Counted from the stretch's first letter, positions 2,698 to 64,000 are shown. The stretch: DNA of 64,000 nt from Acidobacteriota bacterium (GCA_043740245.1 JAYUCP010000171.1:5835-69834), one strand, 5' to 3'. Numbers and translations are program-made. Notes: generated by a model from the sequence alone, not told the origin.

Positions 2698-2788
2698 AAT
2701 TGATCTCCTGGGGATGACCCATTCAGTTGTCTTCAGTTACAATCCGTTTGCCGGCAATGACGCCGGCCGGATGATTGGAGAAAATGCG

Positions 2789-3594: not shown

Positions 3595-3611
3595 CGAGCA
3601 AAGCAGAAGGG

Positions 3612-3680
3612 GAGCGTGCGCGACCGGCGGCTCGGCATTGCGTCCATTGCCAAACTACAAGTCGCGCAACGCTCCCCGCC
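3612..3680. terminator. Bidirectional hairpin between convergent genes
   Basis: ggggagcgtgcgcgac (3614-3629) and gtcgcgcaacgctcccc (3661-3677) are near-perfect inverted repeats with a ~31-nt loop, between the 3' ends of 3178..3594(+) and 3685..4479(-). No clear U-tract. Confidence 0.35.
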
Positions 3681-3684
3681 GCAG

Positions 3685-4479: not shown

Positions 4480-4570
4480 GGTTTTGGTCTCCTTGAAATG
4501 AACGAGGGTTGGTGGTTGCGCGGCGGGTGCGTTACGCGCCGCGTTGAAACAAGCGCCTGGATACTGGCGC

Positions 4571-17067: not shown

Positions 17068-17153
17068 GGTTTTTCTCCTGTTCGTAGTCCCGGCTTCAGG
17101 CGGCAGCGCGCGTCAGCCAAGCCCTGCCGCCTGAAGCCGGGACTACGAACGTT

Positions 17154-18062
17154 TCATTGTTTGACGGTTTGTGTCCCGGCGAGCGGCGGTTCGAGCGCAC
17201 GTTTCGGTTGTTCGGTCTGCGTCGCCGGAGCCTGGCTGCGAATGAAATCCTGCTCGGCCTCGAAGCCGTTGCCCAGCGCCTTCCACGCGGCGCTGCGATT
17301 GAAATAGGCCAGATTGAAATCGGGCTTCAACCGGATGGCTTCGCTGTAATCGGCGAGCGCGCCGCGCAGGTCGCCGAGGGCTTTGCGCGTCAGGCCGCGA
17401 TTGCTGTAGAGCAGCGCGAGGCTGGGGTCGAGCGCGATGGCTTGGTCGTAATCGCGGAGCGCGCCGCGCAGGTCGCCCTGATCGTGGCGGATGCCGGCGC
17501 GGTTGTTGAGGGCCGAGGGCAGGCGCGGATCGAGCATCAGCGCCTGTGTGTAATCGCTGAGGGCGGCGGCGAGGTTGCCTTTGTTTTGGTGGACGAGGCC
17601 GCGATTGTTCCAGGCCAGCACGGCGCGTGGGTCGAGCTTGATGGCGCGGCTGAAATCGTCGAGCGCGCCGTCCAATTCGCCCTGCTGGGAGCGCAGGTTG
17701 CCGCGCTTGATCCAGGCCAGGACGTAATGCGGGTTGAGCGCGAGGGCTTCGTCCAGATCGCCGCGCGCGGCGGCGTAATCCTGCTGGTCGTAGCGGACGA
17801 CGGCGCGGTTGTAATAGAGCACCGCCGCTTCGGGGTTGACGATGCCGATGTGATTGGCCGCCACAGCGCCGGGCGAGAGTTGGGTGGCGAGTTCGAGCGC
17901 GTGGTCGAAATCGTTGAAGGCGCCGTCGAGATCGCCTTGTTGATAGCGGGCCACGCCGCGTTTGAAAAAGTCTTCGGTGGAATTGGCGCGCGGCGTTTGC
18001 GCCTGGACGGAAGCGCTAACAGAGGCGAGCGTGAAAATTACGAGACAGAGAATGCGTTTCAT
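17154..18062 (-). CDS. Secreted TPR-repeat protein (paralog of 1759..2697)
   Basis: AAGGAG RBS plus ATG at 18062 and signal peptide. TPR units collinear with 1759..2697, including the C-terminal LEPPLA. Confidence 0.8.
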   Translation of the reverse strand: MKRILCLVIFTLASVSASVQAQTPRANSTEDFFKRGVARYQQGDLDGAFNDFDHALELATQLSPGAVAANHIGIVNPEAAVLYYNRAVVRYDQQDYAAARGDLDEALALNPHYVLAWIKRGNLRSQQGELDGALDDFSRAIKLDPRAVLAWNNRGLVHQNKGNLAAALSDYTQALMLDPRLPSALNNRAGIRHDQGDLRGALRDYDQAIALDPSLALLYSNRGLTRKALGDLRGALADYSEAIRLKPDFNLAYFNRSAAWKALGNGFEAEQDFIRSQAPATQTEQPKRALEPPLAGTQTVKQ

Positions 18063-20843: not shown

Positions 20844-21138
20844 AGTCGCATTCTCTTCGTCGCAGAGCGACGGCTGACTTTAGCCGTGGGTTTCAACCCA
20901 CGGAACGTTCGGCAATAGTTCCCGCGTCGCGGAGCGACGCTTGATGCTTGGCGTAATTCGCATTGTGTTTTTCCGTCATCACGATGCAATGGAAAAGCGA
21001 GGTACAGGTTTGCCATTTCGTTTTTCCGTCAATCCTTCAAGCGTCGCTACGCGACGCGGGATGCGCGCGCTGTCGTCCGTGGGTTGAAACCCACGGCTAA
21101 AGTCAGCCGTCGCTCCGCGACGAAGAAAGTGCGCATTT
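20844..21138. mobile_element. MITE-like palindromic element, family A copy 1 (~60-bp imperfect TIRs, nested inner inverted repeats)
   Basis: Left end tcgcattctcttcgtcgcagagcgacggctgactttagccgtgggtttcaacccacgg pairs with the right end ccgtgggttgaaacccacggctaaagtcagccgtcgctccgcgacgaagaaagtgcgc. Inner inverted repeat cccgcgtcgcggagcgacgcttga / tcaagcgtcgctacgcgacgcggg. No coding capacity. Related copies at ~51003 and ~55883. Confidence 0.6.
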
Positions 21139-26180: not shown

Positions 26181-26313
26181 GTAACTACTCAGCCGGTAGC
26201 CGTGTCAGTAGCCCGACCGTGAGGAAGGGCGGGCTTCAATCAGACCAATGGGTTTTATTTGAAGCCCGCCCTCCCTCACGGTCGGGCTACTGACACGGGG
26301 CTGAGCAGTTACT
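26181..26313. repeat. Palindromic element family C copy 1 (~55-bp arms)
   Basis: gtaactactcagccggtagccgtgtcagtagcccgaccgtgaggaagggcgggcttcaa pairs with ttgaagcccgccctccctcacggtcgggctactgacacggggctgagcagttac. A shorter copy lies at 49191-49270. Confidence 0.6.
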
Positions 26314-49137: not shown

Positions 49138-49190
49138 CGATGGCACAGGCTGATCCGCAGGTTTCTTCTGCTTTTCAGAAGTCTTTGCTG

Positions 49191-49270
49191 CCGTGTCAGT
49201 AGCCCGACCGTGAGGGAGGGCTTGCTTATTGAGCCTAAGCCCTCCCTCACGGTCGGGCTACTGACACGGC
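49191..49270. repeat. Palindromic element family C copy 2 (short form)
   Basis: ccgtgtcagtagcccgaccgtgagggagggcttgctt pairs with aagccctccctcacggtcgggctactgacacgg. Preceded by a small hairpin cttctgcttttcagaag (49165-49182) 3' of wzc. Confidence 0.6.
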
Positions 49271-49356
49271 CAGCCTTACATTTTTATCACTGCCGCCGCG
49301 TGAAGGATGTCAGGCGCGCCCCGCGTCGTTACTTATGGCCGCAACTTGAGTCGAAC

Positions 49357-50910
49357 ATGAATAGCAAAGAAAAGGAATTCGCCGAGGTCATTGCGATTAA
49401 GCCCGCAGTGGAATCCCGGCGGGAGCCTGAAAGACAGTCCGGGACGGGTCGCCTGAGGCCGCCAGCCCAGGCTTACACGCACTCGCATTCCGGGCGCCTG
49501 CCTGAACAGCGGCGAGCCGAAGCCTATGTGCGGCCTGACCCCAAAGGCCCGATTGACGTCGAAGCGAAGTCGGTGGATGTTTACACCCAGCCGGTTCCGC
49601 CGCCCCAATTTCGCGTTGAAACCATACCTGAACCTACGCCTCCGCCCGCTCGTAGCGCTCAGATCAAGGCGGCCGCCGAAGCCTTTGAGATGCCCAAGGT
49701 TGAACCCTTTACGCGGCCCTTGCGCGTGTTGCACGTCACCAACGTCGAGACCTCGAACTACTACCTCAACAGCCTCTGCGATTTTACCGACCGCCACGCG
49801 GTTACTTATCTGGCGGCGACGTTGGGCAAAGAGGGCAGCTTCACGAAAGATTTAGATAAGCGCGGCGTGCAGGTTTACGCGCTTGATTGCCGCCATCGCA
49901 GTCAATACCCGAAGGCCTTATATCAGCTTAACCGGATTATTCAGAAAGAGCGCGTGGATATTGTCCACACACATTTGGTCGAACCCACGCTGGTTGGCAT
50001 GCTGGCGGCGAAACTGCGTCACCGCGTCACGGTGGTCACGCGGCATCATTCCGATGCCGTTTATCAAATGCCTTCCAAACTCAAACGCGAGGCGTTCTTA
50101 AAACTGGAGAATTGGATCAATCGCCAGGCCGATCACATCATTGCGCCCTCGCAGATGGTGCGCGATATTCTGACCCGGCGCGAACACGTGCCCGAAAAGA
50201 AGGTTTCGCTCATCCCCTACGGCCAGACGCTAGACCGCTTCGAGGCCATCAAGCCGGAGCAGGTCGAGAAATTACGAGCCGAATTGGGAATGCGCGAACG
50301 CCTGTCTTTGCTGTGTGTGTCGCGCTTGCATTGGGAAAAAGGGCACCGGTTTTTGCTCGAGGCTTTCGCGTTGTTGCGTGATGAAGGTTTGGACGCCAAT
50401 CTTTATTTGTTGGGCCTGGGCCCCGAACGCGAACTGTTGGAGCGGCTGGCGAGAGAATTGGATATTCACGATCGCGTGTGCTTCCTGGGTTGGCGTGACG
50501 AGGCGTTGCCGGTGATCGCGGCGGCCGATGTGATCGTGCACGCCGCCTTGCAAGAAGCCATGCCCTCGGTCGTGATCGAAGCCCTGATGCTCGAACGCCC
50601 GTTGGTGGTGACCGATCTAAGCGGCGTGCGGGATGTGGTTGGCAATAGCAAACATGGCATTATCGTCCCGCCGCGCAACACCGAAGCCCTGCACGCCGCG
50701 TTGGGCTGGACGGTGCATAATCTGGCGCAAGCCCAGCAGCGCGCCCGCGTCGGGCGTAAGTTCATTCTCGAGTACATGAGCGCTGAACGCGTGGCGCGCG
50801 AGTATTTCAACGTTTACCGCCGTGTGATGAAAGAGCATCTGCAAAGAGTCGTTGCCAGACAAGGCACGATCAGCGCGGACACGCGCCAAATCCTGGAAGA
50901 AGTGGAGTAA
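49357..50910 (+). CDS. Glycosyltransferase family 4 with ~110-aa Pro-rich N-terminal extension
   Basis: The GT4 core runs from LRVLHVTNVE. EX7E-region block ALQEAMPSVVIEALMLERPLVVTDLSGVRDVV. The start at 49357 has a weak RBS. The longer ORF from 49210 overlaps the repeat. Confidence 0.65.
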   Translation: MNSKEKEFAEVIAIKPAVESRREPERQSGTGRLRPPAQAYTHSHSGRLPEQRRAEAYVRPDPKGPIDVEAKSVDVYTQPVPPPQFRVETIPEPTPPPARSAQIKAAAEAFEMPKVEPFTRPLRVLHVTNVETSNYYLNSLCDFTDRHAVTYLAATLGKEGSFTKDLDKRGVQVYALDCRHRSQYPKALYQLNRIIQKERVDIVHTHLVEPTLVGMLAAKLRHRVTVVTRHHSDAVYQMPSKLKREAFLKLENWINRQADHIIAPSQMVRDILTRREHVPEKKVSLIPYGQTLDRFEAIKPEQVEKLRAELGMRERLSLLCVSRLHWEKGHRFLLEAFALLRDEGLDANLYLLGLGPERELLERLARELDIHDRVCFLGWRDEALPVIAAADVIVHAALQEAMPSVVIEALMLERPLVVTDLSGVRDVVGNSKHGIIVPPRNTEALHAALGWTVHNLAQAQQRARVGRKFILEYMSAERVAREYFNVYRRVMKEHLQRVVARQGTISADTRQILEEVE

Positions 50911-51002
50911 GTAACGCGCCAGCGATTTCCCCAATGACGATGACCACGCCTTGACCCTAAGTGTTGTTCGCCATAAATCCTTTGAGAGTTGTCCGCCACG
51001 TT

Positions 51003-51187
51003 TTCGCCGCGTCAGCGGCGGCTGACTTTAGCCGTGGGTGCAACCCACGGAGAGCGCAGTTGAGATTTCCGCGTCGCGTCAGCGACGCCTGAATTCAAGC
51101 GTCGCTGACGCGACGCGGAAACCATCGCGATCCTTCCCGGCGTTGAAAACGCCGGGCTAAAGTCAGCCGCCGCTAGCGCGGCGAAGA
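51003..51187. mobile_element. MITE-like palindromic element, family A copy 2 (compact form)
   Basis: Ends cgccgcgtcagcggcggctgactttagccgtgggtgcaacccacgg / cccggcgttgaaaacgccgggctaaagtcagccgccgctagcgcggcgaag. The perfect inner palindrome ccgcgtcgcgtcagcgacgc..gaattc..gcgtcgctgacgcgacgcgg. Confidence 0.6.
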
Positions 51188-51335
51188 GACGGCGATGACC
51201 CCTTAACGAATTTACGGCGGGCAGTACTAAGAGCTTTGGTTTCAAAGCAGTAGGGCGGTGCAGCCGCAAGTTTATTGCGACCGCTCAACTGGCATCAGTC
51301 AACGAGGAATTTGGTGAAAAGCTGTATCTTGCTCT

Positions 51336-52832
51336 ATGTCAATTCGCCACGATCAACAGCGCCGCAGCGTTACCTGGGATGTCTCCGCCGGGCCGCGCAA
51401 CTATTTACAGTTGGTCGGCACTCAATTGCTCAGTTCGCTCGCCTCGTTGCTGACGGTCTGGATTCTGACGCGCGTGCTGGGGGCGGCAGGCTACGGTCGA
51501 GTAGCGGCGCTGATCGCCGCCGCCATGTTGATTGGCATGGTCGCGTTGAACTGGAGTGCGATGGCGCTCGCGCGCATCGGTTGCGAAGAGTTTGTCGAAA
51601 CCGGGCGCATCACCGACACCTTTTGGACGCGCACTGGCATTCTGTTGCTCAATTGGTTGTTGGTGCTGGTGACCGCGCCGCTCTGGTTTCGCGCGCTGGC
51701 AAGTTGGCTGCAACTGAACAACGAAATGCAGTTTTGGCTGCTGGTTTACCTGGCGTCGCTTTCAGCCTGGGCCCATGTGCAATACGCTTTGCAGGCGGCG
51801 AAGCTGCAAGGCCTGGTCGGGCGGTTGCTGGCGCTGGAACGGTTGTTAATTTTAAGCGGAGCCATCCTGCTGGCGCTGAATGGCGCTTCGCTGACCAAGA
51901 TTGTCGCGGCTTATGCCAGCGGCGCGCTGGCCGCAGCCGTTGGCGGTTTGTGGCGCTTGCGCCATTTGATCGGCCGCGTGCGCGGCTTGAATCCCGCTTT
52001 GGCTGGCCGCGTGTTACTCTTTTCCTTACCGCTGATCCCACAATCCCTGATCAGTTATTTTTCGACCAACTACCTGGATGCCTGGTTCATTCTGCATTAT
52101 CGTTCATCCGCCGATTTGGGAGTATATTCGCTGGCCTATCAACTGGCAGGGACGGCCATGCAATTGCCAGTGCTCGCGAGTTCGCTGCTGCTCCCTATGT
52201 TTACCACGCTGGAAGTGAAACAAGATGACCAACGGTTGGCAGTCTACGCGCACGATATTTTGCCTGTTTTGAGTTTGGGGTGGGCGGCGGCTGGGACATT
52301 CATCACAGGAGCGCTGGTCGTTTTTTTGCCCTTGGTTTTTGGCGCGCAATTCGCGCAGGCTGCGCCCTTGATATGGCCGCTGATGGCCGCTTGTGTAATC
52401 GTTGGCCCAATGTCCATGGGCTATGGGCCGCTGCTCAACGCTAAATCGGCCACGACGGCAATTGCGGTTTCCGCGCTGGCTGGGGCCGGGGCCAATGTCC
52501 TGCTCAATTTTGCCTTGATCCCCCGTTGGGGAATGCTGGGTTGCGCCTGGGCCACAGTTGGGGCCTATTTGATAAACTTACTGGTAGGGGCTTATTTGCT
52601 TTGGCGGGTGAGTGGTTTGAGCGGAGGCTGGGTGCTCGAAGCGATCCTCCCGCCAATCTGCGGCGCGGCCTTCGCGGGGGCGACGGGCAACAACTGGCTG
52701 GCATTTTTACTTACTCTCGCTATCATTTTTTGCTTGGCGCTGGCGCACCGGGCGACACTCCTGAGCGGTGGGCGGCGGTTGTACGGCATCTGGGCGCGCA
52801 AATATGAATTGGCGCTGCTACCGGAATCCTGA
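51336..52832 (+). CDS. wzx: Polysaccharide flippase, Wzx/MOP-superfamily
   Basis: ~12-14 TM helices. The N-terminus ..LQLVGTQLLSSLASLLTVWILTRVLG is typical of Polysacc_synt family flippases. Confidence 0.7.
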   Translation: MSIRHDQQRRSVTWDVSAGPRNYLQLVGTQLLSSLASLLTVWILTRVLGAAGYGRVAALIAAAMLIGMVALNWSAMALARIGCEEFVETGRITDTFWTRTGILLLNWLLVLVTAPLWFRALASWLQLNNEMQFWLLVYLASLSAWAHVQYALQAAKLQGLVGRLLALERLLILSGAILLALNGASLTKIVAAYASGALAAAVGGLWRLRHLIGRVRGLNPALAGRVLLFSLPLIPQSLISYFSTNYLDAWFILHYRSSADLGVYSLAYQLAGTAMQLPVLASSLLLPMFTTLEVKQDDQRLAVYAHDILPVLSLGWAAAGTFITGALVVFLPLVFGAQFAQAAPLIWPLMAACVIVGPMSMGYGPLLNAKSATTAIAVSALAGAGANVLLNFALIPRWGMLGCAWATVGAYLINLLVGAYLLWRVSGLSGGWVLEAILPPICGAAFAGATGNNWLAFLLTLAIIFCLALAHRATLLSGGRRLYGIWARKYELALLPES

Positions 52833-52999
52833 TTCGTCCTTTTCCCCTGTGTAATGACAGGGCCTTATCAATCTCGCAACAGGCGGGCAGTCCGGCTGTC
52901 CGCCAAGCTGCCAGCTTGTCGCGGGGGTGGTGGTAAACCCAGTGATTCGCCAGCCGAGACTTCGACAAGCTGGCAGCATGTCGGACACTACCGAGGCGT

Positions 53000-54130
53000 A
53001 TGAAAATTTGTCAGCTCTCTTCAACATCGGTTGACGGAGGATATTTCGAAGGATTGGCGCAGGGGCTTACGTCTGTAGGGCATGAGTTACTTTACGTGTC
53101 TTTACGTGAGGCGCTGCCGCCAACTTGGTTAGATCGCTACCCCTCCATCGCCTATCGCACACTGGGCGCCACGGCGCGCTGGCAATACCCCTTGGCCACC
53201 TTGCGCCTGGCACATTGGCTGAGACGGGAGCAGGTCTCGATCTTGCATATGCATTTGTATGATGCTGGCCTCGTGGGCTTGCTGGCAGCCTTGCTGGCGG
53301 GCGTCCCCGTGCGGCTTTTGTCGCGTCATCACTTGGATGAGACATGGCTCTTGGGCACGCGTCTGACGGTCGAGTTGGATCGTTGGATGGCACGCCGGGT
53401 TGATTGCGTCATTGTGCCGGCACAGGCTGTACGCCAGCACATGCTCGAAAAAGAATCATTGTCTGAAGCGCAGATCGAAGTGATTCCACATGGCTTCAAA
53501 TTCGAGTCATTGGCTGCCGATGAATTGGCCGGGCAACGCGTGCGTAGCGAATTGGGCCTGGATGGCGCTTTTGTGTTGGGGAATGTCGGACGGCTAGTCC
53601 GCAACAAAGGGCATCTTTATTTGTTACAAGCCGCCAAAGCCTTGCTGCCAGAGATCCCAAATTTGCGCGTGTTGCTGGTGGGCGATGGTGAGCGGGCGCT
53701 GGTCGAAGGAATTGTCGCTGAACTGGGGTTGCAAGATAACGTCGTCTTTGCCGGGTTCCGCCGTGACGTGGCGGCCTGTATGAAAGCGATGGATGTGCTG
53801 GTGCACCCTTCGCTGTCTGAATCGTTTGGGCAGGTGCTCGTCGAGGCGATGTGCGTGGGGACTCCGGTGGTCGCCAGTGCTGTCGGCGGCATTCCGGAAA
53901 TCGTCAGTCACGAGCGGACGGGATTGTTGACGCCGGTGGCTGACGCTGATGCTTTGACGGTAGCGCTGCGCCGGTTGCACGCCCAACCCGAATGGCGCAT
54001 GGCGCTTGGCATGGCAGGTCAAGCCAGCGTTTATGCGCGCTTTTCGCGCGAGCTAATGGTGCAACGTTACCTCGAAATCTACCGGCGCTACGAACACGAG
54101 CCAAGCGAGAAGACGTATGTCGCAGCCTAG
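53000..54130 (+). CDS. Glycosyltransferase family 4
   Basis: GNVGRLVRNKGHLYLLQA and ESFGQVLVEAMCVGTPVVASAVGGIPEIV. Confidence 0.8.
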   Translation: MKICQLSSTSVDGGYFEGLAQGLTSVGHELLYVSLREALPPTWLDRYPSIAYRTLGATARWQYPLATLRLAHWLRREQVSILHMHLYDAGLVGLLAALLAGVPVRLLSRHHLDETWLLGTRLTVELDRWMARRVDCVIVPAQAVRQHMLEKESLSEAQIEVIPHGFKFESLAADELAGQRVRSELGLDGAFVLGNVGRLVRNKGHLYLLQAAKALLPEIPNLRVLLVGDGERALVEGIVAELGLQDNVVFAGFRRDVAACMKAMDVLVHPSLSESFGQVLVEAMCVGTPVVASAVGGIPEIVSHERTGLLTPVADADALTVALRRLHAQPEWRMALGMAGQASVYARFSRELMVQRYLEIYRRYEHEPSEKTYVAA

Positions 54131-54917
54131 ATTTGAAGCCTTACCTGCGGCCCGTCAGGCGCGCACGCAATCACCTTATTGGGCCGAACATGTGGCGCGC
54201 TATCGCTTCGCGGTATCACAGCTCAAACAAGGCCGGGTGCTCGACATTGCCTGCGGCACAGGCTACGGCATGCCGCTCTTGGAGGCTGCCGCCGCGCGGG
54301 TGATTGGCGTGGACGTTGATTGGGAGGCCGTGCAGAAGGCGCGCGGCGAGATTGATATTACGCATACCACACTGGCGTTAGCGGATGGTTGCCAACTGCC
54401 CTTCGCCAACGCGAGCTTTGACGCCGTGACTTCATTTGAAACGCTCGAACATTTGGAACGCCGCCCGCAATTCCTGGCTGAATTACGCCGCGTCTTGCAG
54501 CCCCAAGGTGTTTGCATTCTCTCGACGCCTAACGCCAATTACACGCAGCCGGTCAATGGCAAGCCGACCAATCCCTTTCACGTTTACGAATACACTCCGG
54601 CGGAATTGCGGGCCGAACTGGCCGCGCAGTTTGAGCTAAAAGCCTTGCTGGGCCAGACGCTGGATGCGCGCTTTACCATCCCGCCGTTTTGGGATGCGCA
54701 ACAACGTTTGCCGCGCACGCCCGGCATTCAAGCGCAATTGTATTTTTGGAAGGCGCTGAACAAGTTGCCGGTGGCTTGGCGCGAAGGCTTGAGCGAAGCA
54801 TTGTGGGGACGGCCTTTTTATCCGGCTGAGACCGACTATCATTTTGATCTGGCGACGGTCGAAACCGCGCCGGTGTTGGTGGCGCTTTGCCAGCCGAAAG
54901 CTGAGGGGGGGAATTGA
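54117..54917 (+). CDS. Class I SAM-dependent methyltransferase
   Basis: Motif I VLDIACGTGYG and post-I FDAVTSFETLEHL. Overlaps the upstream gene by 14 nt. Confidence 0.75.
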   Translation: MSQPRFEALPAARQARTQSPYWAEHVARYRFAVSQLKQGRVLDIACGTGYGMPLLEAAAARVIGVDVDWEAVQKARGEIDITHTTLALADGCQLPFANASFDAVTSFETLEHLERRPQFLAELRRVLQPQGVCILSTPNANYTQPVNGKPTNPFHVYEYTPAELRAELAAQFELKALLGQTLDARFTIPPFWDAQQRLPRTPGIQAQLYFWKALNKLPVAWREGLSEALWGRPFYPAETDYHFDLATVETAPVLVALCQPKAEGGN

Positions 54918-54919
54918 CG

Positions 54920-55849
54920 ATGGCCTGGCCGCTGGTTTCCGTGATCATCCCCAATTACAACTATGCGTGCTATCTGCCGCAAGCCATTGATAGCGTGTTG
55001 GCGCAGACTTACGCCCCGGTCGAAATCATCGTCGTGGATGACGGTTCGCGGGATGATTCGCTCGCAGTGCTCAAAAGCTACGGCGCGCGCCTGCGCTGGG
55101 TAACGCAGCCGAATCAGGGTGTCGCCGCTGCGCGCAATCACGGCGCGCGCTTGAGCCAGGGCAGCTATCTGGCCTTTCTCGACGCCGATGATTACTGGCT
55201 GCCAGCCAAGCTGGAGCGGCAGCTTGAACGCTTTCTCCAAAATCCGGAGTTGGGGCTGGTCTATTGCGGCGTGGCTGAGTTCAACGAAAGCGGCACGGTT
55301 AGTTTACGGCAGGAGGGCGCGGAGGGCGGGGTGTTGCAGGAGTTGTTGTTGCTGCGGCGGCCGGCGTTCTTTGGCGGGGGCAGCGGCTTCGTGACACCGC
55401 GTGCGTTGTTTGAAGAAGCCGGCGGATTCGACGAACACCTTTCAACTTCGGCGGATTGGGATTTGGCCTTGCGGTTGGCGGCGCGGCGGCCTTTCGGCTT
55501 TGTGTCCGAGATATTGCTCAAATACCGGCTACACAACTCCAATATGCATGCCAACGTCGGCGTGATGGAACGCGATATGATGCTTGTTTACGCCAAGGCT
55601 TTTGAACAGGCGCCTGCTGAAGTGCGAGCGTTACGCCGCGCGAGTTATGGTCGGCTACACATGGTACTGGCGGGTTCGTATTTTCAGGCGGGACAGTATC
55701 GGCAGTTTGGGTGCCATGCGCTGAAGAGTCTGTGCCTTGCCCCGGCCAATGCGGCGAGGCTGCTCAGCTATCCCTGGCGGCGCTGGCAACGGCGGCAGGC
55801 GGCGCTTGGCGCACGCCTTTCCGCCGCAAAGGTGACAGCAGAGCAATAG
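54920..55849 (+). CDS. Glycosyltransferase family 2
   Basis: GAGGGGGGG RBS plus ATG at 54920. VSVIIPNYN, VDDGSRD and LDADDYW (DxD) are the GT2 hallmarks. Confidence 0.8.
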   Translation: MAWPLVSVIIPNYNYACYLPQAIDSVLAQTYAPVEIIVVDDGSRDDSLAVLKSYGARLRWVTQPNQGVAAARNHGARLSQGSYLAFLDADDYWLPAKLERQLERFLQNPELGLVYCGVAEFNESGTVSLRQEGAEGGVLQELLLLRRPAFFGGGSGFVTPRALFEEAGGFDEHLSTSADWDLALRLAARRPFGFVSEILLKYRLHNSNMHANVGVMERDMMLVYAKAFEQAPAEVRALRRASYGRLHMVLAGSYFQAGQYRQFGCHALKSLCLAPANAARLLSYPWRRWQRRQAALGARLSAAKVTAEQ

Positions 55850-55873
55850 CCTTGATGCAGTTTGCCTCATCAA

Positions 55874-56157
55874 GCTGAGACAGTAGTGGTAAAAATGTAA
55901 TGCTGCATTTTTGCAGCCGCGTAGCGGCGACCTGAATTTAGCCCGGCGTTTCAACGCCGGGTAGCGCGGCACGAATGACCCGCGTCGCGTAGCGACGGTT
56001 GAAACGGAAGCGAATACCGGAAAAGGTTCAAGCGTCGCGATGCAACGCGGAATTGCCTCGTTCCGCTACCGTGGTTTGAAAACCACGGCTAAATTCACCT
56101 TGTCGCTACGCGACAAAAACGGACAAGCATTACATTTTTACCACTACCGCTGAGACA
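55874..56157. mobile_element. MITE with 21-bp perfect TIRs and 9-bp target-site duplication, carrying a family A core
   Basis: TIR-L gtagtggtaaaaatgtaatgc (55883-55903) is the exact reverse complement of TIR-R gcattacatttttaccactac (56127-56147). Direct repeat gctgagaca flanks both ends (55874-55882 and 56149-56157). The interior shares cccgcgtcgcgtagcgacg, ttcaagcgtcgc and ccgtggtttgaaaaccacggctaaa with the other family A copies. Confidence 0.65.
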
Positions 56158-56205
56158 AACCTCGCCGAGGTGGGCGCGGGACTCTCAGGCAGGAAACCAC
56201 ACGAC

Positions 56206-57513
56206 ATGCACACGCTCTATGTTTGTTATTTCGGATTGCGTGAGCCGCTGGTGCAGACACAGGTGCTGCCCTACCTACGGCAGTTGCGGGGCGCTGGCGT
56301 GCAGGTCAGTCTGCTGACGTTCGAGCCAGGCGGTTTGGAGTCCTGGCCAGCAAGCGAACCGCAACAGTGGACAGCGCGTCTGCGCGAGGAAGGCATTCAA
56401 TGGCGCGCGCGGCGCTATCACAAACGCCCGACCTTGCCCGCGACACTCTTTGACATTGTGGCGGGCGGCCTGACCATTGTGCAGTGGAGTTGGCGCGAAC
56501 GGTTGGATGTGGTGCACGCGCGCAGTTATGTCGCGGCCCTGATCGCCCGGCTGGCAGGCCCTTTCACGCGCAGCAAATTACTCTTCGACATTCGCGGTTT
56601 GATGGCCGAAGAATATGTGGACGCGGGCTCCTGGCCGGCAGGCGGGTTGTTGTACCGGTTGACGAAAGCCGCCGAGCGCTGGTTGTTGCGTTCCGCCGAT
56701 GGTTTTGTCGTGTTGACGCAGCGGGCGCGTGAATTGCTGTTTCCGGCGGCGGTGGGCGCAAACGAAGACACCACCGGCGAAAGCGAGTTGCAGGGCCGGC
56801 CGATTGCGGTGATTCCGTGTTGCGTTGACGTGGCGCAATTCCGTTTGGCCGAAGCGGCGGCAAGGGAGCAGACGCGCCAGGCCTTGGGTGTCGCCGGGCG
56901 GCGCGTAGTGATTTATGTCGGTTCGCTTGGCGGCTGGTATTTGACCGAAGAAACATTGGCTCTGTTTGAAGCCGCGCGGCAGCAAGACCCGGCGACCTTC
57001 GCCTTGATCCTGACGCCGCGCGATGTGCCACAGGTCGAACGACAACTGCGCGCGCGCGGTTATGCCGAAACGGACTTTCGTGTCTTGAGCGTGGCCCCAA
57101 CCGAAGTCGCGCGTTATTTGGCGGCGGCGGACATTGCGCTCTCGCTCATCAAACCTTGCTATTCAAAGCAAGCTTCGTCGCCGACCAAGATTGCGGAATA
57201 CCTGGCGTGCGGCGTGCCGGTGATCAGCACGGCGGGGATCGGCGATCTGGACGCGTTGTTTGCGCGCGCGCGTGTCGGCGTGATTTTGCGCGGCTTCACT
57301 GCCGCCGATTATCTGGCGGCCTTGCAGGCGTTGGATGAAATGCGCGCTGCGCCGGAATTGCGGGCGCACTGCCGCCAAGTGGCAGTGACGGAGTTTGATT
57401 TGGAGCGCGTGGGCGGAAGGCGTTATCGCCGCTTGTATCAACGCTTGCTGGCGCCGGCGAACGCGCTGCAGGATGAGGAGGCTTCAGTTTGCTCCACGCG
57501 CGCCACAGACTGA
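56206..57513 (+). CDS. Glycosyltransferase family 4
   Basis: AGGAAA plus ATG at 56206. VVIYVGSLGGWY and EYLACGVPVISTAGIGDL. Confidence 0.7.
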   Translation: MHTLYVCYFGLREPLVQTQVLPYLRQLRGAGVQVSLLTFEPGGLESWPASEPQQWTARLREEGIQWRARRYHKRPTLPATLFDIVAGGLTIVQWSWRERLDVVHARSYVAALIARLAGPFTRSKLLFDIRGLMAEEYVDAGSWPAGGLLYRLTKAAERWLLRSADGFVVLTQRARELLFPAAVGANEDTTGESELQGRPIAVIPCCVDVAQFRLAEAAAREQTRQALGVAGRRVVIYVGSLGGWYLTEETLALFEAARQQDPATFALILTPRDVPQVERQLRARGYAETDFRVLSVAPTEVARYLAAADIALSLIKPCYSKQASSPTKIAEYLACGVPVISTAGIGDLDALFARARVGVILRGFTAADYLAALQALDEMRAAPELRAHCRQVAVTEFDLERVGGRRYRRLYQRLLAPANALQDEEASVCSTRATD

Positions 57514-57553
57514 ATCCAAGTGTCCGGCGTTTTAGCGCGGGAATTTTCAAGGT

Positions 57554-58858
57554 ATGACGATGCCACAATACAACGATTTGCCGTTTGCGCTCGTGCTGCT
57601 CGTGGTGTTTGCCGGGTTGGGCGTGGGGCTGTTGACGCTGACGCGCCTGCATCGCGCGAGCTTGCCGCAGCAACTCAAACTCTTTCTGGCGGCGCTGGGC
57701 GTGCGCTTTCTGGCTTCGGTGGCCATCTATGAATTCGGTTTGGTGCAGGTGTTGGGGGATGAAGATAGTAGCGGTTGGACGGCGGGCATCGTGCAAATGC
57801 AGCAATGGACACAGCGCCACCTCGGCTGGCTGGATTTGCCGGAAGCATTGGCACAGGCCTTTTACCAACAGCAACAGGGCTATCGCTATTTGCTGGGCAC
57901 GTTCTTTTATTTGACGGATGCGCCCGCGCGGATGCCTGCGGCCACGTTGAATTGTTTCTTTGGCGCCTTGACCGTCGTCATGACCTATCGAATTGCCGAA
58001 AGCCTTTTTTCGCGTTGGGTCGCGGTGCGGGTCGGTTGGGCGGCCTGTCTGTTCCCGTCTTTGGTGATCTGGTCGGCGCAAACGGTGAAAGAACCGGTGG
58101 TGATTCTGCTGGAAGTCGTCGCGCTTTATGCCTGTGTGCAATTAAAGCGCGAAGGGTTTTCGTTGCGTTACATTTGGCTTTGCGTGCTGGCGATTATGTT
58201 ATTGCTGCCGTTCCGGTTTTACGCGGCTTATTTGGCGGCCACCGCCGCCTTGCTGGGCTTGCTCATACCGCAAATTGGCAAGCGTAATTCCTCGGTGCTG
58301 GCTGGGGTCGGAATCGCCTTGCTGGTCATTCCACTGGCGATTTCGTCGGGGATTCTGGCGCGCAGCGAAGCGTTGATTGAGCGGTTCGATCTCAAATATA
58401 TCAGCCAATATCAACGTGGTATTTCGGTCGGACAGAAATCCGGCGTGACGCTTGGCTACGACTTGCAGACGACGTCAGGTTTGGCGCTTGGCATTCTGGT
58501 CGGCGGGGCGCATTTACTTTTAGCGCCGTTCCCCTGGCAACTTGGCGGCGCAAGCGTGCGCATGGTGCTGGTCTTGCCGGAGCTGTTGGTCTGGTGGTGG
58601 CTGTTCTTTTTCGGCGTGGTGCCGGGTGTTTGGCTGGCCGTGCGGCGGCGTTTCGGCGAGTTGCAAGCGCTGTTTATTTTCAGCGGCGGCTTGGGTCTGC
58701 TTTATAGCTTGCTCTTTGGCAACATCGGACTGGCGGTAAGACAGCGGGCGCAGTTGTTGCCGTTGCTGTTGATTTTTGCGATGGTTGGCTTGGAATGGCG
58801 CTTACAAAAGGCCAAACAACGACAGGCTGCGCAACCGCAGATTGTGGTGTCGGCGTAA
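57554..58858 (+). CDS. Polytopic membrane protein (candidate GT-C-type glycosyltransferase or polymerase)
   Basis: ~11 hydrophobic helices. No soluble catalytic motif recognised. Confidence 0.55.
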
Positions 58859-58875
58859 GCGTCACGCCGGTGCGT

Positions 58876-59961
58876 ATGCGAGTTTTATTTCTGACAACCT
58901 ATCCGGTGGAAGCGGCCAATACCCGCTACCGTGTGCAGCAGTTCTTTCCGTACCTGCAAGCTGCCGGGATCAGTTGTGAATTGGCGTCATTGATGTCGCG
59001 CGAATTGTTCTTTGAGTTTTATCAACCCGGACAAAGCTTAAGCACAATGGCCGGCTTGGTGCGGGCGTTGGGTCGGCGCTTGGGTGATGTCGTTCGTGCG
59101 CGTCGTTACGATGTCGTTTTTCTCGAGCGCGAAGCCCTGCTGTTGGGGCCGCCGCTGCTGGAATGGTTGCTCGCCCGTGTTTTGCGCCGCTCGATTGTTT
59201 TCGATTTCGACGACGCGATTTTTTTGCCCGCGCAAAATTCGATTCGCGGGAATCTGGCGACCTGGTTGAAATATCCGGCGAAGACGGCGCGCACGCTGGC
59301 GCTGAGCACTCAAGTCATCACCGGCAACGAGTACTTGGCGGCTTATGCCCGGCGCCACAATCCCCGTGTAACCGTCTTGCCGACGGTCGTGGATGCCGCA
59401 CAATATGCGGCCACGGCTCCTGCCCCGCGGGCCTCGGACAGTCTCGTCATCGGCTGGATCGGCACACATTCGACCGCCCCCTATTTGGAAATCATTGCGC
59501 CAGCCTTGGCGCAACTCGCGCGGCGTCAGCGCTTCGTCTTGCGCGTCATCGGAGCGGGACGCGCGGTGCAAATCCCCGGCGTCGTTGTCGAAAATCGCCC
59601 CTGGCAATTGGCAACCGAGATTGAGGATTTTCGCAGTTTGGACATCGGCGTTTATCCGATACACGACAACGAATGGTCGCAGGGCAAATGCGCCTTCAAA
59701 GCGATTCAATACCTGGCCGCTGGCGTGCCGTGCGTAGCCTCGCCCGTGGGCATGACAAAGGACGTCATCACCGACCAGGTCAACGGCCTGTTCGCCGGCA
59801 CGACGGCGCAGTGGGAACGGGCGTTGGAACAGTTGCTGACCAACGCCGAATTGCGGCGGCGATTGGCGCAAGCCGGTCAGTCGCACATTGCGCGCGAGTT
59901 TTCATTACAGGTGCATGCGCCGCGTCTGGCGGCTGTTTTACGCGCCGCCGCCGGGCAATGA
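58876..59961 (+). CDS. Glycosyltransferase family 4
   Basis: ATG at 58876. [13 protein letters not shown] and [24 protein letters not shown]. Confidence 0.75.
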
Positions 59962-59993
59962 AGCGCGGGCCCGGTGAACAAATGAGGAGCCAA

Positions 59994-61016
59994 ATGAGTG
60001 ATCTTGAGGATGACAAAACACGACGTCAGCGTTTGGCCTTGTTGCGTTGTCCGAAATGTCAAAGCGAGTTGTCGGTGCAAGGAAGTGATGCCTTGCAATG
60101 TTCGCAGTGTGCCATGCGCTATCCCATCGTGAATGGCATCCCGCGCATGTTGACCCAAGAAATGCGCCAAGCGTTGACCGGGTCAGTGAATGAGTTAGAG
60201 GTTGATCCGCGCAGCGTGGCTACCGCTCAAAGTTTTGGCTATGAATGGACGCACTTCCCGCAAATGCGGGCCGAATGGGAGCAGAATTTCTGGGGCTATT
60301 TTGCGCCGCACACGGCTGCGACCTTCAACAGCAAGCGCGTGCTTGACGCCGGTTGCGGCACGGGCCGTCATACGTTTTATGCCGCGCAGTTTGCCCAAGA
60401 AGTCTGGTCGGTGGACTTGGGCGACGCGGTGGAAGTCGCGCGGCGCAACAACGCCGCTCACCCGAACGTGCAAGTCGTGCAGGCCGATTTGTACCAATTG
60501 CCCTTTCCGGCTGAGAGCTTCGATTTTGTTTACTCGATTGGCGTGCTGCATCACCTGCCCGATCCCGAGGGCGCCTTCCGCAATCTGCTGCGGTATTTGA
60601 AAAAGGGCGGGCAGGCGCATATCTATTTGTATTGGAAGCCGGAACGTCAGCCGATCAAACGCGCGTTACTGGAATTCGTAACCGCGTTGCGGCAAGTGAC
60701 GACGCGGCTGCCGCACCGGTTGATACACGGCCTGGCTTATCCGGCGGCGGCGGCGGCCTTTGTCGGATTTGTCTGGCCTTATCAGCTTTTGCGCGCGGCT
60801 GGGCTGAACCAAATTGCCGAGCGCTTGCCGCTGAAACAGTATGCGCAATACCCGTTCAGCGTTTGCATCAACGATCAATTCGACCGCTTCTCCGCGCCTA
60901 TTGAAAACCGCTACACGCGCGCCGAGGTGCAGGGCTGGCTGGAACGCGCGGGCTTGGCAGAGATCGTTGTACGTCCGAATTTCGGCTGGTGCGCGAGCGG
61001 GCGCAAGCCGCTGTAG
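59994..61016 (+). CDS. SAM-dependent methyltransferase with N-terminal Trm112-like zinc ribbon
   Basis: GAGGAG RBS plus ATG at 59994. LLRCPKCQSELS...LQCSQCAMRYPIVNGIP followed by VLDAGCGTGRH and FDFVYSIGVLHHL. Confidence 0.7.
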   Translation: MSDLEDDKTRRQRLALLRCPKCQSELSVQGSDALQCSQCAMRYPIVNGIPRMLTQEMRQALTGSVNELEVDPRSVATAQSFGYEWTHFPQMRAEWEQNFWGYFAPHTAATFNSKRVLDAGCGTGRHTFYAAQFAQEVWSVDLGDAVEVARRNNAAHPNVQVVQADLYQLPFPAESFDFVYSIGVLHHLPDPEGAFRNLLRYLKKGGQAHIYLYWKPERQPIKRALLEFVTALRQVTTRLPHRLIHGLAYPAAAAAFVGFVWPYQLLRAAGLNQIAERLPLKQYAQYPFSVCINDQFDRFSAPIENRYTRAEVQGWLERAGLAEIVVRPNFGWCASGRKPL

Positions 61017-61032
61017 ATTTGGAGAAGAAGCG

Positions 61033-62043
61033 ATGTCAGAAATCAGCAGTCCACACGACAAATTTTTCAAAAAGAGCTTTGAGCGGCGCGACATCGCCTC
61101 GGATTTTCTTATCCATTACTTGCCGTCCGACGTTGCGGCCGAGTTGGATTTGCGCGCGCCGCAGTTGCAGAAAGACAGCTTCGTCGATCCGGTGTTGCGC
61201 GAACATTTCTCCGACCTCCTCTATCGCGTGCGGTTCAAGCGTGGCGGCGCGGCCTTTGTGTACTTGCTGTTTGAACACAAGAGCACGCCGGAAGAGTTGG
61301 TCGCGTATCAGGTGTTGCGTTACGAGGTGCTGGCGTGGGAGCCGTTGGCGCGCGCGGCAATGAGGAAGCCTGGCAAGAAAAAGCTGCCGCCAATCATGCC
61401 GATCGTGATTTATCACGGGCCGCGACCCTGGCAGGTGCCGCGCAATTTCAGCGGCGTGATCGAATGGCATGGCTCGGAGTCGTTCCGGCGGTTCATGCCG
61501 GAGTTCATGTATTTTCTGCTCGATCTGTCGGTGTTCAGCGAAGCGCAGATCGTAGGCGCGGCGCTGCTGCGGGTGTGCTTGCTGGTGTTGAAGCACGCTT
61601 ACGAAGGCGATTTGATCGAACGGTTGCCGGCCTTGCTGGGGTTGTTGCCAGCGCGCGAACAGGGTGCGTTAGAATACCTGGCAACGGTGCTAAAGTATGT
61701 GTCAGAAGTGGCGCGCCCATTGACGCGCAATGAATTCGAAGCAGTGAAGGAACAGCTTCCAACAGAAACAGGAGAAATTATGGAAACTTGGGCGTCGTCT
61801 ATGTTGAAGGAAGGCAAACAGATAGGCCGGCAGGAAGGTCGGCAAGAAGCAGGCGCGGAACTGACGCTATATCAACTGCAGGAGCAGCTTGGCGCGCTGG
61901 ACGAGCGGACGCGCGCGCGCGTGCGCAAGCTCGCCTACGAGCAGTTGCTGGAATTGAGTGGGGCCTTGCTCAAATTCAAATCACCGAAAGACCTGATGGA
62001 CTGGTTGCGGACGCACGCGCGCGGGCGTTCGTTGGCGAGTTGA
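61033..62043 (+). CDS. Rpn/YhgA-like recombination-promoting nuclease / putative transposase (PDDEXK, C-terminal DUF4351-like)
   Basis: GGAGAAG RBS plus ATG at 61033. The N-terminal PHDKFFKKSFERRDIASDFLIHYLP...DLLYRV......FVYLLFEHKS pattern is typical of this family. Confidence 0.65.
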   Translation: MSEISSPHDKFFKKSFERRDIASDFLIHYLPSDVAAELDLRAPQLQKDSFVDPVLREHFSDLLYRVRFKRGGAAFVYLLFEHKSTPEELVAYQVLRYEVLAWEPLARAAMRKPGKKKLPPIMPIVIYHGPRPWQVPRNFSGVIEWHGSESFRRFMPEFMYFLLDLSVFSEAQIVGAALLRVCLLVLKHAYEGDLIERLPALLGLLPAREQGALEYLATVLKYVSEVARPLTRNEFEAVKEQLPTETGEIMETWASSMLKEGKQIGRQEGRQEAGAELTLYQLQEQLGALDERTRARVRKLAYEQLLELSGALLKFKSPKDLMDWLRTHARGRSLAS

Positions 62044-62044
62044 G

Positions 62045-62647
62045 GTGAATGCCTTGAGACTGCGTGGCTGGTTCTTGGCACTTGGTTTGTTGGCGGCGTT
62101 CTATTTCTGTTTGCCCTCCGTACTCAACGCCGCCGCGCGCCAGCTCATACGCGCGGACAGCTTGATTGCGGCTGATGCCATCATCGCGCTGGGCGGCGAT
62201 CCGCTTTGCCTGCGCGAACGCCAGGCGGCGGAACTCTATCATCGCGGCTTGGGCCGCAAGATCGTGATCGCGGGCTTGCCCTTCGCCTGGGGCGGCAATA
62301 CAGGCGATGCCAAACGGCGTTATTTGATCTGCCGTGGCGTGCCGTCTGCTGACATCGTAGTGTTGCCCGAGGCCACCAACACGCGGCAAGAGGCGAGCAC
62401 TTTGCAGACGGTCATGCGGCAAAATCAGTGGCATTCGATGATCGTCGTGACCGCCCCCTTTCACTCGCGGCGCGCGCTGTTCACGATGGAGCGGCACGCC
62501 GGGGAATTGAAATTCTATTCCTCACCGGTGCCTGCCGAGCCGCCCGAATGGCGGCCCGCAATGTGGTGGACGCGCCGGCGCGATGTCTTCATCACCGTGC
62601 GGGAGTTTATCTCGTGGGGGAATACCCTGGCGGGTGGCTGGCAGTGA
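62045..62647 (+). CDS. DUF218 (YdcF/ElyC-like) domain protein
   Basis: GTG at 62045 overlapping the upstream stop. The signal/TM plus ADAIIALGG ... VVTAPFHSRRA pattern is typical of DUF218. Confidence 0.55.
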   Translation: MNALRLRGWFLALGLLAAFYFCLPSVLNAAARQLIRADSLIAADAIIALGGDPLCLRERQAAELYHRGLGRKIVIAGLPFAWGGNTGDAKRRYLICRGVPSADIVVLPEATNTRQEASTLQTVMRQNQWHSMIVVTAPFHSRRALFTMERHAGELKFYSSPVPAEPPEWRPAMWWTRRRDVFITVREFISWGNTLAGGWQ

Positions 62648-63264
62648 AGGCCAATTTGAAGAAGTGGGGTGGGCGCGCGCTGCTGGCAATGCTGGTGGGC
62701 GGCGCGCTCTGTTTGCTGGGTTTCTTTTCTTTGCCCTGGCTGGCGATTGGGCCGTCTGACACGCCGAGAAAGGCGGATGTCATTCTGCATTTTGCCGTGG
62801 ATGAACGGTTGAATGGAGATCAGTTCGTGGCCGAGCTTTTCCGGCAAGGTCTGGCTGAACACATCCTCTGCCTCAGTACGCAAGCTGCCTGGGAAGTCTA
62901 TCCCGCCGAGTATTCACGCGCGCACTTGCTCGAATTGGGCGTGCCCGCAGCGCAGGTTTCGACCTTGCATCTGCCCACGGCGCTCGATTGCCGGGCGCAG
63001 GTGATGCCGATTGTCGTGAGTTATCTGCAACAACAAGGCTGGCGCAGCGCCTTGATGGTCGTGGAACCGCCCGGGAGCCGGGCGAATCGCCGTGTCGCCG
63101 CGCCGGTTTTTGCGCGGGCCGGAATTGATCTGGCGCTGAGCTATTCGCCACGCGACTATCAGGCCGTGACGACGAATTGGTGGCGCGAACACTGGAAGAC
63201 CCAGAGCATGTTTAGCGAAGTGCTGAACGCCGGCTTCGATTTTTTTTACTCCGAGTGCTGGTAG
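62644..63264 (+). CDS. Second DUF218-like protein, translationally coupled (GTGA overlap)
   Basis: TM helix ALLAMLVGGALCLLGFF. Weaker similarity to the upstream paralog. Confidence 0.5.
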   Translation: MKANLKKWGGRALLAMLVGGALCLLGFFSLPWLAIGPSDTPRKADVILHFAVDERLNGDQFVAELFRQGLAEHILCLSTQAAWEVYPAEYSRAHLLELGVPAAQVSTLHLPTALDCRAQVMPIVVSYLQQQGWRSALMVVEPPGSRANRRVAAPVFARAGIDLALSYSPRDYQAVTTNWWREHWKTQSMFSEVLNAGFDFFYSECW

Positions 63265-63327
63265 CTGTGCGCAAAGAACGCGCATCAACAGGTTGGCCAC
63301 TATGGAATGGCTTGAAATCAACTTTAC

Positions 63328-63415
63328 CAAACCACGGGGAACACGGGGCACACAGGGAAAATCAAGCAGCCTGTGTTGGTTTTCCCCGTGACCCCCGTGC
63401 TCCCCGTGGTTGATT
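63328..63415. repeat. GC-rich palindromic element, family B copy 4
   Basis: caaaccacggggaacacggggcacacagggaaaa pairs with ttttccccgtgacccccgtgctccccgtggttgatttg. Confidence 0.6.
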
Positions 63416-63486
63416 TGGCAGAGTTATTTCCCCATTCATCCCTAAGCATGTAATGGCGCAAGCCCGCGAAAGACTAAACAGAAACC

Positions 63487-64000
63487 ATGTGTGGAATTGC
63501 GGGGATCGTTAGCAAAACAGGCGGCCTGAGCGGGTGGCAAGTACAGCCCATGATTGACGCGCAACAGCATCGCGGGCCTGACGCGGCGGGCGTCTGGGCC
63601 GATGAGCATTGCGCCTTGGGCCACCGGCGGCTGTCCATCATTGATCTGTCAGAGGCCGGGCGCCAGCCCATGGCCAATGACGATGGCAGCGTTCAAATCA
63701 CCTACAACGGCGAAATCTACAACTTCCAAGCGTTGCGCGCGGAACTGGAAGCGCTCGGCCACAGCTTTCGCACGCGCACCGACACCGAAGTGATCCTGCG
63801 CGCCTATGAACAGTGGGGCGTTGAATGTTTGAAGAAGCTGCGCGGGATGTTCGCCTTTGCGATTTGGGATCGGCGGCAGCGGCGGCTGTTTGTCGCGCGC
63901 GACCGGGTGGGCAAAAAGCCTTTGTTCTATACGCAGGCCGGCCCGCGTTTCTTTTTCGCATCGGAGTTGCAGGGCTTGCTGGCGAATACCGAAGTCCCGC
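63487..64000 (+). CDS. asnB: Asparagine synthetase (glutamine-hydrolysing), N-terminal part; continues beyond the window
   Basis: Starts MCGIAGIV (N-terminal nucleophile Cys2). RRLSIIDLSEAGRQPM and NGEIYNF are class-II amidotransferase motifs. No stop before the window end. Confidence 0.8.
   Translation, partial: MCGIAGIVSKTGGLSGWQVQPMIDAQQHRGPDAAGVWADEHCALGHRRLSIIDLSEAGRQPMANDDGSVQITYNGEIYNFQALRAELEALGHSFRTRTDTEVILRAYEQWGVECLKKLRGMFAFAIWDRRQRRLFVARDRVGKKPLFYTQAGPRFFFASELQGLLANTEVP

Follow-up and report, generated by a model that had tools for sequence, protein, structure and literature searches.

Bacterial non-autonomous DNA transposons (MITEs) that fold into long RNA or DNA hairpins include the Correia elements of Neisseria, ERIC/IRU, RUP and Nezha. 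The REP, REPIN and BIME repeats of Proteobacteria are likewise built from short GC-rich intergenic hairpins and, to our knowledge, REPINs make no target duplications. Among the insertion sequences, GGnnnTG ends together with duplications of 8 to 9 bp are the signature of the IS1 family (PMC10425158, Table 8; PMC6807381), and an ISAba3-like IS1 element, with the terminal inverted repeat (TIR) GGTGGTGTTTCAAAAAGTATGCTG, makes 8-bp duplications (PMC6382973). The Rfam motif Acido-Lenti-1 (RF01687) has been carried since 2010 as a stand-alone, candidate trans-acting sRNA whose function is not known and which is sometimes found near group II introns (Weinberg et al. 2010, PMC2864571).

Here, we describe an insert that touches on all of these. 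It lies in a polysaccharide locus of the window (the whole 64,000-nt stretch of acidobacterial DNA that was analysed), occupies positions 55882-56148 and is very probably a MITE of the IS1 family, the interior of which consists of two outward-facing copies of the Acido-Lenti-1 motif around a central palindrome (Table 1).

Table 1. Features of the element and its immediate surroundings (positions in the window)
Feature	Position	Strand	Remarks
Upstream gene, family-2 glycosyltransferase (GT2)	54914..55849	+	Pfam PF00535, 126.6 bits; stop codon 24 nt before the duplication
Left duplication copy, GCTGAGAC	55874..55881	.	Direct repeat; 8-bp length from family copies; single homologous copy in the L084 empty site
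Left IS1-type TIR, AGTAGTGGTAAAAATGTAATGCT	55882..55904	+	Terminal A where the family has G; matches IS1-family ends
Left arm, Acido-Lenti-1 module	55915..55961	-	Hairpin B 55942-55961, linker GCTAAATTCAGG, hairpin A 55916-55928; outward to the TIR
Central region	55978..56051	.	Copy-specific spacer between two inner GCGTCGC...GCGACG hairpins, 55982-55997 and 56032-56047
Right arm, Acido-Lenti-1-like module	56064..56114	+	Hairpin B' 56069-56088, linker GCTAAATTCACCTT, hairpin A' 56102-56114; outward
Right IS1-type TIR, GGTAGTGGTAAAAATGTAATGCT	56126..56148	-	GG end intact
Right duplication copy, GCTGAGAC	56149..56156	.	Direct repeat; family copies; L084 empty site
Downstream gene, GT4-type glycosyltransferase	56206..57513	+	Pfam PF13579/PF13439; start codon 49 nt after the duplication

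Ends of the element, target-site duplication and empty site

The inverted repeat GTAGTGGTAAAAATGTAATGCT is 22 nt long, with arms at 55883-55904 (plus strand) and 56126-56147 (minus strand) that are 100% complementary. When up to 3 mismatches were allowed, the 64-kb window yielded only these two arms and one degenerate copy at 49272-49293, and 100 shuffles gave no match by chance. In the whole window, there are exactly two occurrences of the 9-mer GCTGAGACA (55874-55882 and 56149-56157), against a background expectation of 0.33 per window, and the probability that it would abut both repeat arms by chance is negligible. The left 9-mer touches the repeat, and on the right the arm and the 9-mer are set apart by a single base (c, 56148).

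The base before GTAGTG is always G in related loci, so that the TIR is read as 23 nt, GGTAGTG...CACTACC. As far as can be judged from sequence comparison, the element is thus 267 bp long, with 23-nt IS1-type TIRs as its true ends. The right end is GGTAGTG and the left AGTAGTG, one substitution away, the family consensus being GGTAGTG or GGCAGTG; the window TIRs are accordingly perfect over 22 nt, or 23 nt long with a single mismatch at the terminus, and the two ends are not equivalent, as the left terminal base is A and the right GG is intact. Judging from the length shared by at least 12 other copies, the duplication is the 8-bp GCTGAGAC, and the ninth matching base is the terminal A of the element: the repeat looks 9 bp long because this A replaces G. 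A 9-bp duplication accompanied by loss of the terminal G is formally possible and yields the identical sequence, the left end being atypical either way. The original prediction had posited perfect 21-bp TIRs and a 9-bp duplication, gctgagaca. The exact reverse complementarity was borne out and extends slightly further, to 22 nt, and the 9-mer is indeed present on both sides. What did not stand are the bounds, since the full TIR comprises 23 nt including the terminal GG (with the left terminal base mutated), and the duplication length, which is 8 bp in the family, the ninth base being the mutated terminal one. No ORF of at least 80 aa was found wholly inside the 267-bp element; the sole ORF overlapping it is antisense (55655-55972) and extends out into the GT2 gene.

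Placement of the element between GT2 and GT4 genes of an exopolysaccharide locus, also part of the original prediction, was confirmed by the Pfam matches listed in Table 1 and by the surrounding genes, which encode Wzx, Wzz/kinase, further glycosyltransferases and methyltransferases. The best named homologues of the window genes are in Pyrinomonadaceae and Blastocatellia MAGs. An identical GT4 gene is present in L081, a metagenome scaffold 100% identical to window positions 50206-63513, and the GT4 protein is also encoded on contig L082, which breaks inside the element.

The comparison with strains lacking the insertion, suggested with the original prediction, recovered two syntenic relatives with an uninterrupted GT2-GT4 junction (L084/L100 and L085/L101). 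In these, GT4 is 84% identical and the order GT4-methyltransferase-GT2-GT4 is kept, and the GT2-GT4 spacer measures 52 bp (L084) and 13 bp (L085), the window spacer being 356 bp. When the window junction was aligned globally with L084 (MAFFT), the diverging GT2 C-termini made the result uninformative, and a local alignment of the reconstructed empty site was used. After removal of the element and one copy of the duplication, the window aligns gap-free and colinearly to L084 across the target, of which L084 has a single copy (...CATCAAGCTGAGACAAACCTCGCC... against ...CCTCAAGTTGAGGCCGGTTTCGCT...). Therefore, the insertion is younger than the split from those relatives.

Another gene in the same polysaccharide locus, at 61033-62043, has matches to Pfam Transposase_31 (PF04754, YhgA/Rpn-like) and DUF4351. 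It is present in the window and in L081 and missing between the methyltransferase and DUF218 genes of L101, and therefore represents another lineage-specific insertion.

Related copies and autonomous IS1-family elements

Searching for the TIR beyond the window, a check likewise proposed at the outset, revealed many TIR-bounded copies with duplications as well as autonomous IS1 elements of 853-857 bp. More than 25 related copies were collected from Acidobacteriota MAGs and soil metagenomes, most of them with exact 8-bp duplications. A degenerate TIR pattern matched 24 loci in species-representative genomes, mostly Acidobacteriota, Blastocatellia or Pyrinomonadaceae MAGs; related loci from these genomes have the same hairpin cargo behind the TIR. 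One 9.5-Mb Acidobacteriota chromosome contributes at least 10 copies that are nearly identical, TIRs included. The metagenome scan added 55 loci, mostly short MITEs, and the scan of viral contigs gave a single match. With the ends set as GG...CC, the duplication is exactly 8 bp in L001, L005, L007, L009, L015, L018, L022 and the window copy, and exact 8-bp duplications are also found in L047, L048, L070 and L075; it is 9 bp in L021 and matches at 7 of 8 positions in L003, L023 and L024, and some minimal MITEs with the same TIRs have none. Nearly all copies examined (14 of 15) do not overlap an ORF of at least 200 aa.

The TIR is also present in MAGs labelled Heliomicrobium, Bacteroidota, Clostridia and Longitalea (L003, L004, L006, L011, L014, L016 and L017), so that the TIR family is not confined to Acidobacteriota. 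L003 carries a full acidobacterial-type element and may be mis-binned; the other loci have other short interiors or solo ends. In the Blastocatellia MAG locus L024, an array of 11 tRNA genes (1814-4152) lies immediately upstream of an Acido-Lenti-1-type MITE (4277-4517). A pair of TIR-like sequences in L010 (positions 2849 and 7451, 4.6 kb) was considered as a large autonomous element and rejected, as only porin, glyoxalase and methyltransferase genes lie inside and the two were treated as unrelated solo ends. Ordinary genes, and no transposase, were found beside the solo TIRs in L008, L016 and L017.

An autonomous element with such ends was found at L064 1687-2539. It is 853 bp long, with TIRs GGTAGTGCTAAAAATGTAATGCC and GGTAGTGCACAAAATGTAATGCT, an 8-bp duplication (ggcgaatg) and a single ORF of 244 aa, the product of which scores 167.6 bits against the NCBIfam model NF033558, IS1 family transposase (cutoff 100), 73.7 bits against Pfam PF03400 (DDE_Tnp_IS1) and 27.2 bits against the IS6 equivalog (cutoff 125). 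A second copy of this type, in L027, is cut off by the contig end. At E<=1e-20, 4568 homologues of the L064 transposase were counted, and most of their contigs are about 1 kb long. We examined 13 homologue loci (L087-L099), 12 of which contain elements of 856-857 bp; in L093 there is a left end only. The 23-bp TIRs of these 12 elements match GGTAGTGCTCAAAAAGTAATGCT, perfectly in L087-L092 and with one mismatch at the left end in L094-L099, and 8-bp duplications flank those in L091 and L096, where the context is intact. One of the copies in this set is in an Acidobacteriota MAG, and a 90%-cluster member is annotated from a Pyrinomonadaceae MAG. Compared with the ends of the elements in L064, L027, L087 and L102, the left TIR of the window element is identical at 19-21 of 23 positions and the right TIR at 20-22 of 23. 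Beyond the TIRs, the window element bears no likeness to the autonomous elements, and it contains no transposase gene. Judging from the GGnnnTG ends, the duplications of 8 to 9 bp and these matching autonomous elements, the parent of the MITE is the IS1 family, the partner being seen in other genomes and in soil metagenomes.

Further IS1 elements came to light in the same searches. An apparently frameshifted IS1-family element with the 8-bp duplication ccttttta lies at L102 156-1009, i.e., at about 16753-17606 of plasmid pNHAL01 of Nitrosococcus halophilus. Its 23-bp TIR, GGTAGTGTTCAAAAAGTAATGCT, places it in the same clade, and the PLSDB gene table of the plasmid, which is incomplete, has no feature at that position. 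In L060, a minimal 93-bp MITE (74-166) lies beside a decayed IS1 copy (273-725), and L061 contains a different IS1 element (2322-3034) that shares only the first ~9 nt of the end (GGTAGTGGCTCAAT); therefore, several IS1 lineages coexist in these soils.

Hairpin modules inside and outside the IS1-type ends

An Rfam scan of the window gave 3 matches above the gathering score of 37 bits, all to RF01687. One is the left arm of the element (42.5 bits), and the other two, at 20858-20903 and 21077-21122 (41.7 and 44.6 bits), are both arms of the palindrome at 20847-21133, discussed below; for the right arm, Rfam reported no RF01687 match. With a local nhmmer arm profile, both arms were recovered (50.8 bits for the left, with the TIR 10 nt downstream, and 45.3 bits for the right, with the TIR 11 nt downstream), and the two form an inverted repeat over 49 nt at 76%. 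The cargo as a whole is a 220-bp imperfect palindrome, each half of which comprises an Acido-Lenti-1 module, i.e., two hairpins joined by GCTAAAnTCA, and an inner GCGTCGC hairpin; the family consensus of the central region, from the alignment, is CGCGTCGCGTCAGCGACGC TTGAATTCAA GCGTCGCTGACGCGACGCG. In the 16 arms compared, taken from nine elements, 98.7% of cells in the two module hairpins are paired, and 5 pairs change on both sides, mostly reflecting two arm types and few independent events. Folded as a single strand, the whole element reaches -142 kcal/mol (z = -12.9).

At the Rfam gathering threshold, only two arms were reported among 18 related loci, in L015 and L070. The published RF01687 model thus under-detects this sub-family, and the nhmmer profile was used instead. 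The arm-core profile recognised 49 arms among the collected loci and the window, always in outward orientation, with the TIR 8-14 nt downstream in 40 of the 49.

Ends and cargo nevertheless occur apart from each other. TIR-bounded elements of the Acido-Lenti-1 type measure 205-267 bp, and the same 23-bp TIRs bound unlike interiors, in the minimal type of 92-93 bp, seen many times, and in elements of 115, 159, 180 and 228 bp. Conversely, the cargo exists without these TIRs in two window copies and in all published seeds with flanks. A search of the published Acido-Lenti-1 alignment with flanks found neither GGUAGUG nor UAAAAAUGUAA, so that the original seeds were not bounded by these IS1-type TIRs. 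In Lentisphaera araneosa, the seeds follow one another in tandem on one strand, spaced by 74, 110 and about 190-200 nt (PMC2864571, supplementary files 61 and 183); one repeat unit of this species contains GGGGGUAAAAUGUAAGAUU, which bears a faint resemblance to the inner part of the IS1 TIR.

By local BLAST and alignment, the window was found to contain three elements of this kind (20847-21133, 50957-51231 and 55905-56121), each built of hairpin A, linker TGAATTTAGC, hairpin B, a spacer and two central GCGTCGC...GCGACGC hairpins, followed by the mirror image. The kinship of the interior with palindromes at 20844 and 51003, as originally claimed, therefore holds. The interior family named on that basis is real insofar as three window elements share it, and it can be identified as Rfam Acido-Lenti-1, although it is not tied to the TIRs: only the third of the three, 55905-56121, has the GTAGTG repeat. 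Because two of the three cargo-type elements lack TIRs, the cargo also spreads or persists by a TIR-independent route. Neither an autonomous IS1 copy nor a second TIR-bounded copy of Acido-Lenti-1-type cargo was seen in the 64-kb window, in which the TIR occurs as one full copy and one solo TIR (49272-49294).

The palindrome at 20847-21133 has 58-nt arms that are 95% complementary and no evident flanking duplication. In 50957-51231, the inverted repeat reaches ~45 nt past the hairpins (77-nt arms, 74%), and the boundaries are fuzzy, so that no duplication is definable; this element is not present between GT and Wzx in L100 and L101, the syntenic relatives. Comparison of its outer 45-nt arms and of the flanks of 20847-21133 with the collected loci, as an alternative TIR family, gave nothing informative. 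A hairpin with 34-nt perfect arms (GCCGTGTCAGTAGCCCGACCGTGAGGGAGGGCTT), at 49183-49294, abuts the single IS1-type TIR (GGCAGTGATAAAAATGTAAGGCT, minus strand, 49272-49294); it is likewise absent from L100 and L101, the same hairpin-TIR junction is found in L002, and it represents either a second, decayed type of MITE or an element with one end. This GTGTCAGTAGCCCGACCGTGAGG... hairpin family recurs without an IS1-type TIR at L066 134-209 and at window 26199-26298, where the copy is enclosed by a further short inverted repeat (gtaactactcagcc / ggctgagcagttac). As L100 and L101 have neither 50957-51231 nor 49183-49294, palindromic repeats of several kinds entered the locus recently.

Origin of the element and comparison with described systems

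TIR-bounded copies with duplications, the empty site and autonomous IS1 partners support the original proposal of a bona fide MITE placed by transposase-mediated insertion, with the corrections given above. In the route that we propose, a pre-existing REP-like Acido-Lenti-1 doublet would have come to lie between two IS1 ends and so been captured as cargo. An IS1-family DDE transposase acting in trans would bind both 23-bp TIRs (GGTAGTGnTAAAAATGTAAKGCT), the element would insert into the short GT2-GT4 spacer, and repair of the staggered cut would duplicate the 8-bp target GCTGAGAC. The copy was presumably moved by an IS1-type transposase in the source genome. By analogy with IS26, the activity of which is abolished by GG-to-TT changes (PMC6807381), the terminal G-to-A change may now impair or immobilise the window copy. 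Transcribed as RNA, the insert would form a very stable structure inside a probably co-transcribed gene pair.

That the inverted repeat and the 9-mer on either side of it arose by chance in a structured intergenic spacer has practically no probability left: GC-rich intergenic regions do contain hairpins, and nothing more speaks for it, but none of 100 shuffles matched the TIR, the same TIR bounds dozens of elements elsewhere, duplications flank the TIR-bounded copies, and orthologous loci are without the sequence, the empty site included, by which we consider this reading refuted. It is also very improbable, though less extremely so, that the parent belongs to another family with GG ends and 8-bp duplications. 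GGnnnTG ends with 8-bp duplications are typical of IS6/IS26 too (PMC6807381), and there are IS1595 members with GG ends and 8-bp duplications (PMC8101967). However, wherever an element with these 23-bp TIRs was found to be coding, its protein exceeded the NCBIfam IS1 cutoff, and the searches turned up no IS6 or IS1595 element with such ends. We rejected IS6 on the score given above and IS1595, the candidate parent here being the ISPna2 group, on the ground that the match is to the shared N-terminal zinc-binding domain only.

Two further explanations take the interior as their starting point. One holds that the insert is a REP/REPIN-type inverted hairpin doublet, spread by a RAYT/Y1 transposase or by hairpin-templated recombination, and that the IS1-like ends are bystanders, e.g., remnants of two earlier insertions. 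The same interior does occur twice in the window without TIRs, in copies that fit the REPIN architecture and one of which (50957-51231) is absent from relatives; the original seeds have no such TIRs in their flanks; and the hairpins are kept by compensatory changes. Yet the TIR stands at a fixed distance of 8-14 nt and in fixed orientation after the module in the great majority of arms, the 8-bp duplications flank the TIRs rather than the palindrome, the TIRs belong to the near-identical copies of one chromosome, and the window copy possesses both TIRs and a target duplication, unlike REPINs. We therefore regard the bystander explanation as quite unlikely for the window copy. The other explanation, compatible with the MITE, is that the insert is kept for a role as RNA, be it an Acido-Lenti-1 sRNA pair or a cis structure (terminator, processing site or stabiliser) modulating the downstream glycosyltransferases, transposition being only the means of delivery. 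Rfam lists the motif as an sRNA with covariation, the hairpins covary among the copies, the whole-element fold is strong, a stem and the T-rich part of the TIR form one weak terminator-like site, and the insert splits a gene pair only 13-52 bp apart in relatives. On the other hand, the scan of 55500-56500 found no promoter-like site and terminator-like matches at chance level (one, with 1.1 expected), most of the covariation is due to two arm types, and palindromic repeats fold well with or without a function. We consider such a role improbable, if the least so of these alternatives.

As an IS1-family MITE, the element is of an ordinary kind; as a by-product, an orphan 'sRNA' family of Rfam is seen here to act as mobile repeat cargo. 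It is an evenly balanced proposition, in our estimate, that Acido-Lenti-1 is not an RNA gene but the hairpin module of a REP-like intergenic repeat, which spreads as TIR-less doublets, as tandem arrays in Lentisphaera and as cargo between IS1 ends, moved by the IS1 transposase, in Acidobacteriota of the Blastocatellia/Pyrinomonadaceae type. In a stronger form of the idea, IS1 ends would repeatedly pick up different local hairpin repeats, the second hairpin family abutting an IS1-type TIR at 49183-49294 being a case in point. The 'Acido-Lenti-1 sRNA' calls made by annotation pipelines in Acidobacteriota are, at least in part, transposon or repeat cargo. The searches also delimit an IS1 clade, compact and very abundant in soil, with elements of ~855 bp, a single 244-aa transposase, 23-bp TIRs and 8-bp duplications, and with non-autonomous derivatives of 92 to ~270 bp, at which metagenome assemblies break, as in L082. 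Finally, an insertion that splits a tightly spaced glycosyltransferase pair provides a natural marker of the strain lineage and is a possible modifier of operon expression.

Among the described systems, the single-ORF members of IS1 (ISAba3-like elements and those in L064, L087 and L102) share with the window element the 23-bp TIR starting with GGTAGTG, close to the ISAba3-like GGTGGTGTTTCAAAAAGTATGCTG (PMC6382973), and the 8-bp duplication; the window element differs in the missing transposase gene, the lack of internal likeness and the left terminal A. The Correia elements and other hairpin MITEs are similarly small, non-coding, intergenic, multicopy and strongly self-complementary, with TIRs and a duplication, whereas the element described here has an IS1 parent and a cargo of hairpin modules that also exist alone, without TIRs. 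With RF01687 it has in common the above-threshold left arm, the two hairpins joined by a conserved linker of the GCUAAnUUnAU type and the phylum, but the window module stands in inverted pairs inside a transposon or palindromic repeat, and the published seeds are without IS1-type TIRs. The interior and the TIR-less window copies resemble the REP, REPIN and BIME repeats in being inverted doublets of short GC-rich intergenic hairpins that are present or absent between close relatives, and what sets the window copy apart from these is the TIRs and the target duplication, which REPINs lack; neither a RAYT gene nor a conserved GTAG-type head came to notice.
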